Positions 13,860 through 15,535 of a stretch of 64,000 nucleotides of DNA are shown one piece after another. Source of the stretch: Candidatus Sumerlaeota bacterium (GTDB taxonomy: Bacteria > Sumerlaeota > Sumerlaeia > UBA8349). Under the pieces are notes generated by a model. That model made no database searches. It was given only the letters and a program-made list of their open reading frames with translations, and had not been told where the DNA came from. Both the position numbers and the translations under genes were made by a program. Location: assembly GCA_016931035.1 (NCBI GenBank), contig JAFGFN010000181.1:3664-67663 (forward strand), in the 5' to 3' direction. Numbering within the stretch: position 1 is the stretch's first letter; every line of letters begins with the position of its first letter.

Positions 13860-15326
13860 GTGATCGAACGACTCGAAGAACTGGACCAGAACAAACCGAT
13901 TCACCTCATCGGCATCGGCGGGTGCGGGATGTCGGGCGTCGCCCTGACTTTGCGATCGATGGGATATACGGTGTCGGGTTCCGACATGAACGACGGAGCG
14001 ACACTCGCGCGTCTGCGCCAGGCGGGGATTGCGGTCGCCGTCGGCCACAATGGCGGGAATATCCCTTCGGGCGCGCAACTTGTGGTAGCCAGCGCGGCGA
14101 TTGCGAAGCACAACCCCGAGTACATGGCGGCCGAAGTGCGCGGAATCCCCTTGGTCAAATACGCCCGAATGCTCGGCATCCTGATGCGCGCGCGCCAAGG
14201 CATCGCCGTCGCCGGGACCCACGGCAAGACGACGACCACGGCGATGGTGGCGCTGGCGCTTCGCGAGCTCGGGGCCGATCCGGGATTCGTCGTCGGAGGC
14301 GACGTGCCGCAGCTGGGCGGCGGCTCGGGCATGGGTTCGTCGGCGTACTTGGTCGCCGAGGCGTGCGAATTCGACCGGTCGTTTCTGAGTCTCTGGCCGC
14401 GCTACGCCATCATCAACAACATCGAGGAAGACCACCTGGACTACTACAGCGGCCTCGAGGAGATCATCGGGGCGTTTCGCGATTTCGCCCTGCGCCTGCC
14501 TCCCGACGGGCTCCTGGTGTACGGCGCGTCGAGCCCGAACATCGCCCGTTTCATCCGCGAGGCGCCGTGCCGCACGGTCGCCTGCGCCCTGGACCGCGAG
14601 GCGGACTATTGGGCGCACGACATTCGCTACGAGCGCGGGCGGAGCGTCTATCGGCTCAAGGTCGGCGCGACTCCGAGCGCCGAAGCGGCTTCGTGCGACG
14701 TCGAGCTGGCGGTGTTCGGCCGCCACAACGTGGTCAACTCGCTCGTCGCCATCGCGCTCGTGCATCAGCTCGGGTTCCCGCTCGACGACACGGTTCGCGC
14801 CGTCGGGAAGTTCCGGGGCGTGCGGCGGCGTTTCGAGATCGTTCACGACGAAAACGACGTTTGCATCGTCGACGACTACGCGCACCATCCGACCGAAGTG
14901 CAAACGGTGCTCAAGTCGTCGAAGATCTACTTCGGCGGACGGCGCGTGATCGCCGTCTTCCAGCCGCACCAGCACAGCCGCACGCGGTTTCTTCTCAAGG
15001 ATTTCGCCCGTTCGTTCCAGTACGCCGATCTGGTGGTCGTGCCCGACATCTATTTCGTCCGCGACTCGGAGACGGAACGCGAGATGGTCCACGCGCGCGA
15101 TCTGGTGCGCGAGATCGTCGGTCACGGCGGCAACGCGGTCTACATCCCGTCGTTCGCCGAGATCGAGCAGTTCCTGGCCAACAACGTCAACCGGGGCGAC
15201 GTGCTCCTCACTATGGGCGCGGGAAACGTGTGGGAGGTCGGCGCGCACCTGGCGCAACGGTTCTCCTCAGCGACTCCCACGCACCACCGTTCGGCGGTTC
15301 GTGAGCCTGAAGGGCTCACCTACTAA
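13860..15326 (+). CDS. murC: UDP-N-acetylmuramate--L-alanine ligase (MurC); Mpl not excluded
   Basis: IHLIGIGGCGMSGVAL and AGTHGKTTTTAMVA P-loop are present, with Mur ligase middle and C-terminal domains. The last 8 codons and the stop lie inside the repeat element beginning at 15301. Confidence 0.75.
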   Translation: MIERLEELDQNKPIHLIGIGGCGMSGVALTLRSMGYTVSGSDMNDGATLARLRQAGIAVAVGHNGGNIPSGAQLVVASAAIAKHNPEYMAAEVRGIPLVKYARMLGILMRARQGIAVAGTHGKTTTTAMVALALRELGADPGFVVGGDVPQLGGGSGMGSSAYLVAEACEFDRSFLSLWPRYAIINNIEEDHLDYYSGLEEIIGAFRDFALRLPPDGLLVYGASSPNIARFIREAPCRTVACALDREADYWAHDIRYERGRSVYRLKVGATPSAEAASCDVELAVFGRHNVVNSLVAIALVHQLGFPLDDTVRAVGKFRGVRRRFEIVHDENDVCIVDDYAHHPTEVQTVLKSSKIYFGGRRVIAVFQPHQHSRTRFLLKDFARSFQYADLVVVPDIYFVRDSETEREMVHARDLVREIVGHGGNAVYIPSFAEIEQFLANNVNRGDVLLTMGAGNVWEVGAHLAQRFSSATPTHHRSAVREPEGLTY

Positions 15327-15535
15327 AGGCCAGGGCAACGCCCTGGTGAAGGCACATTTCCGTGTCTACCCTAGCCCTGTAGGGGCGTTCTACTCCAAGG
15401 GCAGGAGTGCCCTCGCGTGCTTCCATAGAACGCCCCTACAGGGCTCGCCGTATTCCCGTGGCCTCTCTCCCCGGGCGTTGCCCGGGGCTGTAATAAGACC
15501 GCGCCTTCGGCGCTCAGGATCGAGATCTGGAAGGA
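15301..15535. repeat. ~235-nt multi-hairpin repeat element, copy A (second copy at 59117..59340)
   Basis: It shares the 5' module gtgagcctgaagggctcacctactaaaggccagggcaacgccctgg with copy B. It has serial perfect hairpins: GTGAGCC/GGCTCAC, CCAGGGC/GCCCTGG, AGCCCTGTAGGGGCGTTCTA...TAGAACGCCCCTACAGGGCT and GCGCC-ttc-GGCGC. Confidence 0.7.

Follow-up and report, generated by a model that had tools for sequence, protein, structure and literature searches.

Two hairpin-rich repeats in a Sumerlaeota contig are probably gene-less derivatives of a small Y1 transposon with Acido-Lenti-1-like ends

A stretch of 64,000 nucleotides from a Candidatus Sumerlaeota bacterium (assembly GCA_016931035.1, contig JAFGFN010000181.1, positions 3,664 to 67,663; the whole stretch is called the window here) carries two copies of a hairpin-rich repeat, copy A (15301..15514, plus strand, 214 nt) and copy B (59117..59329, plus strand, 213 nt), and we were interested in what kind of element they represent. 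At a probability of roughly 75%, both copies are non-autonomous, tnpA-less derivatives, similar to REPINs or miniature inverted-repeat transposable elements (MITEs), of a small Y1 (HUH, IS200-like) transposon, because the same inverted units flank a Y1 transposase gene in other genomes. Their relation to this transposon would be that of REPINs to RAYT genes, or of MITEs to insertion sequences. An initial annotation of the window had offered an element of the REP, BIME or MITE type as one option besides a structured small RNA (sRNA), a recombination module and a terminator module, and this option was supported by a large family of inverted-hairpin elements that includes a full-length form with a Y1 transposase between the same ends.

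Alignment of the two copies confirmed that they are direct repeats in the same orientation, with 83% identity including the flanks, and that they share an identical 5' module, although the unbroken run is 47 nt (15300..15346 = 59116..59162) and not 46 nt as previously given. The ends had been placed too far downstream, at 15535 and 59340; homology stops at 15514 and 59329, and the limits of copy A were set by this loss of homology and by analogy with a second pair of copies in another genome (locus L136, see below). Two diagnostic modules, the outer-left hairpin with its linker and the inner arm, each occur in the 64 kb only at copies A and B, with 0.00 occurrences expected from shuffled sequence. 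Both copies fold on both strands with -117 to -125 kcal/mol, corresponding to z values of -5.8 to -8.4 relative to shuffled sequence. The series of perfect hairpins that had been noticed was found as stems of 7 bp, 7 bp, a 20-bp inner palindrome (20/20 in copy A, 18/20 in copy B), 8 bp and 5 bp, but these are arranged as nested inverted repeats instead of a simple series, an arrangement that had been missed before.

Each copy is composed of a left arm, a spacer, the inner palindrome, a second spacer and a right arm. In the 3' 46 nt, an 8-bp hairpin is followed by a 13-nt linker, a 5-bp hairpin and a final T, and the 5' 46 nt are a unit of the same kind in reverse orientation (a reverse complement in kind); between these outer units lies the inner palindrome, each arm of which contains a small hairpin. 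The left arm of copy A (15301..15346, minus strand) begins with the outer hairpin GTGAGCC/TGAAG/GGCTCAC (15301-15319), followed by a linker (15320-15329) and the second hairpin CCAGGGC-AAC-GCCCTGG (15330-15346); it is identical to the left arm of copy B (59117..59162, minus strand) and corresponds in position and build to the left arms of homologous composites from other genomes. The inner palindrome of copy A (15373..15445) has its arms at 15373-15392 and 15426-15445, formed by AGCCCTGTAGGGGCGTTCTA and its reverse complement around an unconserved centre of 33 nt, and that of copy B (59188..59258, arms 59188-59207 and 59239-59258) has two mismatches, both G-T on the plus strand, and its 31-nt centre shows no relation to the one in copy A. 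The right arm of copy A (15469..15514, plus strand) is a forward two-hairpin unit of CCCCGGGC-GTT-GCCCGGGG (15469-15487), a linker (15488-15500) and GCGCC-TTC-GGCGC (15501-15513) followed by T, and the right arm of copy B (59284..59329, plus strand) reads CCCAGGGC-GTT-GCCCTGGG, linker, GCGCC-TTT-GGCGC and T. Two arm differences had been described as compensatory: the first is indeed an exchange of C-G for A-T in the 8-bp stem, but the second (TTC versus TTT) is a loop change. Over the whole alignment, hairpin modules are identical or compensated between copies A and B, and the spacers and the centre are near random. As in a REPIN, the two inverted units of each copy form one long hairpin.

In public collections, the same architecture of ~190-215 nt was found in phage contigs and in bacteria of at least 10 phyla. 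The initial annotation had held that the existence of only these two copies, with no transcript or covariation support, would speak against its proposal; in the wider sense there are more than two, as the family is abundant in other genomes. The source genome and its near relatives can be taken to be absent from those collections, because window-specific pieces of the 5' module gave no exact match, either as a 27-mer in genome contigs or as a 24-mer in metagenome contigs. An 18-mer of the inner arm had 0 matches in viral contigs, and the one viral match to a 19-mer of the outer-left hairpin (L005), located in apparently coding DNA with no other modules, was taken as chance. A synthetic query of 917 aa (six frames of both copies), directed at open reading frames (ORFs) miscalled across other copies, detected none at E<=10. 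The 17-mer CCAGGGCAACGCCCTGG of the large hairpin was found at 36 IMG/VR loci and the 19-mer CCCAGGGCGTTGCCCTGGG, to which the 19-nt hairpin of copy B is identical, in at least 120 genome stretches, with hosts from Acidobacteriota, Planctomycetota, Verrucomicrobiota, Lentisphaerae, Bacteroidota, Desulfobacterota, Gammaproteobacteria, Chlamydiae, KSB1, Hydrogenedentes, Binatia and others. The GC content of the hosts of large-hairpin loci ranges from 45% to 72%, and some of these loci clearly belong to phages, carrying a P22-type portal or a terminase.

Exactly the layout of the window copies was found in 33 foreign composites, in the order small hairpin, linker, large hairpin (AAC loop), spacer, inner hairpin pair, spacer, large hairpin (GTT loop), GCT with linker, and small hairpin. 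The window copies show the same order of parts, namely inverted unit, spacer, inner pair (AGCCCTGnAnGGGCG and its complement), spacer and forward unit. Inner hairpins of the form AGCCCTG(T/A)A(A/G)GGGCG recur in the foreign composites and beside the Y1 gene, and as the search pattern contained neither the inner hairpins nor the layout, the recurrence of both is independent evidence. A profile hidden Markov model built from 27 composites of other genomes only (198 model positions) and run with nhmmer detected copy A at 15303..15516 (E 6.1e-25) and copy B at 59120..59330 (E 1.8e-28), covering model positions 4-193, with no other strong match in the window; the same model detected 77 full-length composites in 68 fetched loci. 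Within an element, the two outer arms repeat each other in inverted orientation and have linkers specific to that element: left arm and reverse-complemented right arm share 20.1/32 identities within elements compared to 14.2/32 between elements, and the linker only 7.0/11 compared to 3.7/11. The inner spacers of the composites are not palindromic. In a set of 199 distinct units, the sequence of the small hairpin is free to vary as long as its stem is kept (loops mostly TTC, GTT and TTT), and a nearly invariant CT follows immediately 3' of each hairpin. In L136, where two copies are located in one contig, only the element is common to both sites, from hairpin foot to hairpin foot and with no target duplication: the near-identical arms have different flanks, the modules are identical or compensated, and the spacers are near random. 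Among related AT-rich phage contigs (L014-L018, IMG/VR sample 3300045988), one locus beside a P22-type portal gene carries the full composite in L018 (14257..14452) and the left half only in L014-L017, and a Segatella copri metagenome-assembled genome (L095) contains a near-identical composite.

All-vs-all clustering of the ORFs located up to 3 kb from hairpin matches led to one recurrent neighbour, found at nine loci in different phyla. This neighbour is a Y1_Tnp protein (Pfam, IS200-like) of ~150 aa, with E values of 1e-17 to 1e-26 for the eight longer copies and 1.4e-8 for the ninth, which is a truncated fragment (L160). In L131, L126, L103, L075 and L138 the gene is enclosed by an inverted unit on one side and a forward unit on the other, with the small inner hairpins adjoining its ends; the inner palindrome of copy A occupies the position that the gene has in the full-length elements. 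These full-length elements of ~630-650 nt (L131 3677..4308, L126 4178..4821, also L103 and L075) read inverted two-hairpin unit, spacer, small hairpin, tnpA, small hairpin, spacer and forward two-hairpin unit, and the ~200-nt composite is this unit minus the gene, with the small hairpins meeting as the inner palindrome. As an independent test, 80 metagenome loci were chosen by the Y1 protein alone. An inverted unit was present at most 250 nt upstream of the Y1 gene in 50 of 77 of these loci (median 57 nt), a forward unit downstream in 49 of 70 (median 60 nt), and units on both sides in 36 of 67; many of these flanking units pass the curated threshold of the Rfam family RF01687 (see below). The search for loci by Y1 protein in viral contigs confirmed no relatives. 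Copies A and B thus belong to a composite family that has the inverted repeats of a Y1 gene as its ends.

The unit-flanked Y1 proteins, all from other genomes, have 150 aa with the motifs DH[VAIM]H, WQ, YIxNQxEHH and a C-terminal DERYVWD. They carry the signatures of TnpA-Y1 subclass 1.2, described as ~148 aa with DH[IV]H, WQ, YIKNQKEHH (Y---Q--HH) and a conserved C-terminal tail, and as low-copy, not IS-like and without associated repeats (Quentin et al. 2018, PMC6006769). Their best match in NCBIfam is the IS200 model NF033573 with 49.6-65.9 bits, which straddles the cutoff of 55, and the RAYT model NF047646 gave 20-23 bits compared to a cutoff of 80.

Truncated Y1 genes between units (L138, L160) raise the question whether copies A and B were formed in place, as remnants of separate full-length Y1 elements from which the gene was deleted between the inner hairpins. 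The unrelated centres of 33 and 31 nt would fit such an origin, as would the related phage contigs with either the full composite or only its left half at one locus. However, the distance between the large hairpins is 106-132 nt in most of the 33 composites, a uniform size that is unexpected from independent deletions, and several composites stand in tandem beside one gene in L070. Together with the near-identical arms at the two differently flanked sites of L136, this makes separate deletions in place very unlikely.

The Rfam scan proposed in the initial annotation was informative, as the right arms of both copies turned out to be sub-threshold matches to RF01687 (Acido-Lenti-1), a family with the layout 8-bp hairpin, ~12-nt linker, 5-bp hairpin and one trailing base. 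Scores of 32.0 bits (copy A) and 27.4 bits (copy B) are below the gathering threshold of 37 bits. In the cmscan alignments all 46 model positions are covered, and GGCU after stem 1, CG before stem 2, the final CU and both stems are kept, with a 3-nt loop and a 13-nt linker where the model has 4 nt and 12 nt respectively. Homologous units at other loci reach 38-51 bits, and both arms of the homologous composite in L030 pass the threshold (48 and 46 bits). Our own covariance model, built from 42 Rfam seed sequences and the two window right arms, led to four unit-like segments per copy in the orientation - - + +, with weak minus-strand scores for the left arms (13.2 bits in copy A, 15.8 bits in copy B). 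It also assigned 29.5 bits to a solo unit outside its training set (38455..38539, minus strand; RF01687 28.4 bits, sub-threshold), the first hairpin of which has a long insertion and which has a degenerate inverted partner at ~38310-38380, so that the 64 kb contain two composites and one solo unit. The solo unit and its partner are part of a hairpin-packed intergenic region of 392 nt (38249..38640). Other Rfam matches (Dictyoglomi-1, miRNA families, RAGATH-10, CRISPR-DR29) were far sub-threshold and were read as generic hairpin matches, and integron attC sites were dismissed, since their cores RYYYAAC/GTTRRRY are not matched by GGGCAAC/GTTGCCC.

Covariation, likewise proposed at the outset, was analysed in 125 units from the protein-selected loci, in an alignment that was fitted to the model so that counts lean towards the proposed structure. 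Paired cells made up 98.2%, changes on both sides were seen in 12 of 13 pairs, and 237 compensatory cells were counted compared to 66 in shuffles, none of 500 of which reached the observed value; the signal was lost when the partner column was slid. The hairpins are thus conserved as structure. G-U pairs are almost absent, with 3 one-sided changes in 1449 cells of this model-fitted alignment, which fits better to a Watson-Crick DNA hairpin or palindrome, for which it is predicted, than to a functional RNA, for which it would be unusual.

Rfam lists RF01687 as 'Gene; sRNA', an sRNA that stands alone, has no known function and is 'sometimes near group II introns', whereas the unit described here terminates either an element of ~200 nt or a transposase unit of ~640 nt. 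If the Rfam type were taken literally, the element or its 46-nt Acido-Lenti-1 module would be the gene of a trans-acting structured sRNA, and the right-arm matches, the folding z values and the strong covariation in both stems, rated 'COV' for the motif by Weinberg et al. 2010 (PMC2864571), can be cited in favour of it. However, the units occur in inverted pairs, so that a 'gene' would lie on both strands, and a transposase gene lies between them at a fixed distance. Copy A overlaps the coding end of murC, copy B is antisense within an operon, and the two are oppositely oriented relative to the host transcripts. Promoter-like sites above chance were found at neither copy, and terminator-like matches at both copies were at chance level, none having a true T-run and no U-tract signal rising above chance, as an intrinsic terminator would require. 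In the seed alignment of Weinberg et al. 2010 (PMC2864571), units of Lentisphaera form tandem, alternating and mosaic arrays, which is the behaviour of a repeat element and not of a gene. Considering also the scarcity of G-U, a discrete sRNA gene or terminator is not supported, and we regard a trans-acting sRNA as highly improbable.

Both insertion sites are in agreement with a mobile origin. The gene murC (13860..15326, plus strand, with a GTG start; Pfam Mur_ligase N/M/C) receives its last codons and stop from copy A, as noticed before: translation of 15300..15326 (plus strand) gives R-E-P-E-G-L-T-Y and TAA. MurC proteins of ten Sumerlaeota relatives stop 12-20 residues sooner, the C-terminal tail being unique to the window genome in this comparison, and the nearest MurC relative (84% aa identity) has no repeat within 82 nt past its stop. 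Copy A is located at a convergent gene junction and is sense to the murC transcript. Copy B was correctly placed between the start of an ABC ATPase gene (58301..59092, minus strand) and the stop at 59417 of a periplasmic-binding-protein (btuF-like) gene (59417..60346, minus strand); it lies in the gap of 324 nt between them and is antisense to the transcript of the btuF-like / ABC ATPase / FecCD operon, which is led by a cobalamin riboswitch (60447..60642, minus strand; RF00174, 99 bits). The flanks GGTTC|...|CAGGA of copy A and CGTCC|...|GTCTC of copy B show no target-site duplication, and the direct duplication typical of a classical MITE of the DDE type with terminal inverted repeats was absent at copies A and B and at the L136 pair. 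Judged from sequence, the lack of target duplication, the unique MurC tail, the repeat-free nearest relative and the sharing of only the element in L136 suggest insertion-like behaviour.

Three 21-kb murC loci of Sumerlaeota (~72% MurC identity) and a 1.3-kb contig (L004) contained single units and no composite. In a 6-Mb Sumerlaeota genome (L001), murC is bracketed by two transposase genes of the rve type (DDE; 8123..9538 and 11663..12822), and a single Acido-Lenti-1-like unit is located directly upstream of murC (9662..9716); in Sumerlaeota, the region around murC seems to be a mobile-DNA hotspot. Between copy A and a sigma-54 activator gene lies a DUF4238 gene (15794..16699, minus strand), whose lower GC content, pointed out before, was confirmed (0.54-0.57, compared to ~0.63-0.69 around it and a background of ~0.64) and which may stem from horizontal transfer. 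A T-loop-like string at ~15740 had suggested a tRNA or tmRNA beside copy A, but ARAGORN found none in the window.

The positions of the copies also allow another explanation, according to which the host keeps them as cis-acting modules, either as protectors of mRNA 3' ends, as decouplers of operons, or as sites for a domesticated Y1 or another DNA-binding protein. Convergent junctions and sites between cistrons are the classical REP/BIME positions in E. coli, and copy A is found at the former, copy B at the latter, between cistrons of a riboswitch-controlled operon. Identical or compensated modules next to near-random spacers, in A/B as in L136, point in the same direction, as do the low-copy, not IS-like subclass 1.2 Y1 genes (PMC6006769). 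However, such a role would be a prediction from sequence, and uneven conservation is also expected if the copies came from different active sources with ends constrained by the transposase. The 19-nt hairpin in hosts of 45% to 72% GC and in phage contigs looks more like selfish horizontal spread. A host function of this kind would be compatible with an origin as tnpA-less miniatures, and as the explanation of the copies it appears rather unlikely.

For the tnpA-less derivatives of a Y1 transposon that we favour, the following mechanism can be proposed. A Y1 transposase encoded elsewhere in the genome would bind the terminal hairpins in single-stranded DNA, e.g. in the lagging-strand template, and would cut beside them, with the CT 3' of the hairpin as candidate cleavage site by analogy to TnpAREP; for such REP-associated Y1 enzymes, cleavage of single-stranded hairpin DNA at CT has been published (PMC8266576). 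The element would then be moved or copied without target-site duplication, the miniature probably being mobilised in trans as hairpinned single-stranded DNA. As a secondary effect, a structure of ~-120 kcal/mol would ride on host mRNAs, in sense at the murC 3' end and in antisense at the junction of the btuF-like and ATPase genes, where it may affect mRNA decay or the coupling of cistrons.

Several points weigh against this explanation. The 64-kb window contains no Y1 gene (tblastn, best E 0.27), and the copies may be old and no longer mobile, with right arms below the RF01687 threshold and left arms that have diverged (their hairpin is followed by CCT in place of GCT; 13-16 bits). We know of no reported activity of a subclass-1.2 Y1 protein on any substrate, and transposition itself is a step that we infer. 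Conserved modules combined with near-random spacers, seen in A/B and in L136, are unexplained by a simple recent copy-and-paste event and need either different source copies with ends held by the transposase, or selection or gene conversion after insertion. In addition, subclass 1.2 has been listed as lacking associated repeats (Quentin et al. 2018, PMC6006769). A variant of the transposon origin is a partly domesticated system, in which the low-copy, non-IS-like subclass 1.2 Y1 protein maintains or uses dispersed two-hairpin sites that are kept intact after insertion. This would explain both the identical or compensated modules with randomised spacers and a 19-nt hairpin that is identical from Bacteroidota to Planctomycetota; we consider it unlikely, though worth naming. 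If true, a cellular role could be expected, e.g. in the processing of single-stranded DNA at replication forks or in control at the mRNA level, and Acido-Lenti-1 would be the recognition site of a REPIN-like symbiont that crosses phyla and is of an undescribed type.

With copies A and B as miniatures of a Y1 transposon, the odd C-terminal tail and stop of murC and the 324-nt gap in the B12-riboswitch operon are explained as insertions of mobile DNA and not as regulatory RNA genes. An Rfam 'sRNA' of unknown function becomes the repeat at the ends of a Y1-transposase unit, and likewise of the miniatures that lack the gene, and a Y1 subclass reported to be free of repeats does have associated repeats. 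For annotation, this avoids miscalling the sites of such elements as sRNAs or spurious ORFs, and the hairpins and the Y1 protein are a candidate enzyme-substrate pair for studies of single-strand DNA transposition.

Other repeats were observed in the window. Tandem 30-nt hairpin repeats (CATGGGCAAGATGCCCATGCCAC...) at 36440..36592 and 39520..39672 are apparently located within the long ORFs 34832..38248 and 38641..42012; the repeats may have been inserted in frame, or both long ORFs could be artefacts. A near-perfect inverted repeat of ~100 nt (GGGACCCTCACCCCTGCCCCTCTCCC ... GGGAGAGGGGCAGGGGGGTGAGGGCCC; 52643..52745) lies in an intergenic gap of 519 nt and gave only sub-threshold Rfam matches of the microRNA type. 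Tracts of the type AGGCTGTAGGCTTTAGG with a period of ~10 nt occur at 57081..57132, 57259..57295, 52377..52460, 52765..52800, 18792..18817 and 47678..47703, sometimes as inverted pairs bordering intergenic regions. A tandem duplication at 28136..31803 (period 2123 nt, 71-77% identity) probably represents two paralogous genes.

Among known systems, REP/BIME sequences, REPINs and the RAYT (TnpAREP) genes that form 'REPtrons' with them have to be considered, reportedly from work of Nunvar in 2010, Bertels and Rainey in 2011 and Ton-Hoang in 2012; they are also treated by Corneloup 2021 (PMC8266576). As in REPtrons, intergenic DNA carries the short hairpin units alone, paired as inverted doublets or clustered in mosaics, with gene ends and operon interiors among the sites; inverted units stand on either side of a Y1/HUH gene, target sites are not duplicated, and a conserved CT stands beside the hairpins, CT being the cleavage site of TnpAREP (PMC8266576). 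In contrast to REPtrons, neither hairpin carries a conserved 5' GTAG/CGTC tag (199 units and the window copies), two hairpins and a linker make up the 46-nt unit instead of a single hairpin, an extra inner hairpin pair is present, and the associated protein has the class-1 motif 'Y---Q--HH' and not 'YIxxNP' of RAYT (class 2). REPs tend to be specific to one lineage, whereas the large hairpin has the same sequence in many phyla. For a REPIN/RAYT system, tens to hundreds of copies per host genome would be expected.

Similarities to IS200/IS605 elements and PATEs include a Y1 transposase with HuH and Y---Q, subterminal single-strand hairpins, and the absence of both inverted-repeat-dependent DDE chemistry and target duplication. 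Unlike in IS200/IS605, the ends are mutual inverted repeats here, the NF033573 scores straddle the cutoff of 55, and subclass 1.2 has been described as low-copy and lacking IS properties (PMC6006769). Because of the inverted-repeat ends and the borderline NCBIfam scores, the status as an IS200/IS605 derivative is ambiguous. The initial annotation had held that a match to the terminal sequence of a known insertion sequence or MITE family would speak against its proposal; in a broad sense such a terminus was found, and it explains the repeat without refuting it.

The searchable literature contained no statement that ties Acido-Lenti-1 to a transposase and no paper with the hairpin sequence, and the link between the Rfam family RF01687 and a Y1 transposon appears to be new. 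The closest resemblance, by description of the architecture, is to TIRtrons (TIRYT), tyrosine-transposase genes between long, sometimes 'double palindromic' terminal inverted repeats, which are also dispersed individually, as dimers or in groups (Di Nocera et al. 2013, PMC3733652). In both cases a Y1 gene is located between long self-complementary inverted repeats of a dispersed family, and Koribacter versatilis is a seed source of Acido-Lenti-1 as well as a TIRtron example in that paper (PMC3733652), which mentions neither a composite that lacks the gene and has inner hairpins nor a link to the Rfam motif. Seen in this way, copies A and B involve no new principle; they are an ordinary miniature mobile element that extends the REPIN/TIRtron theme.

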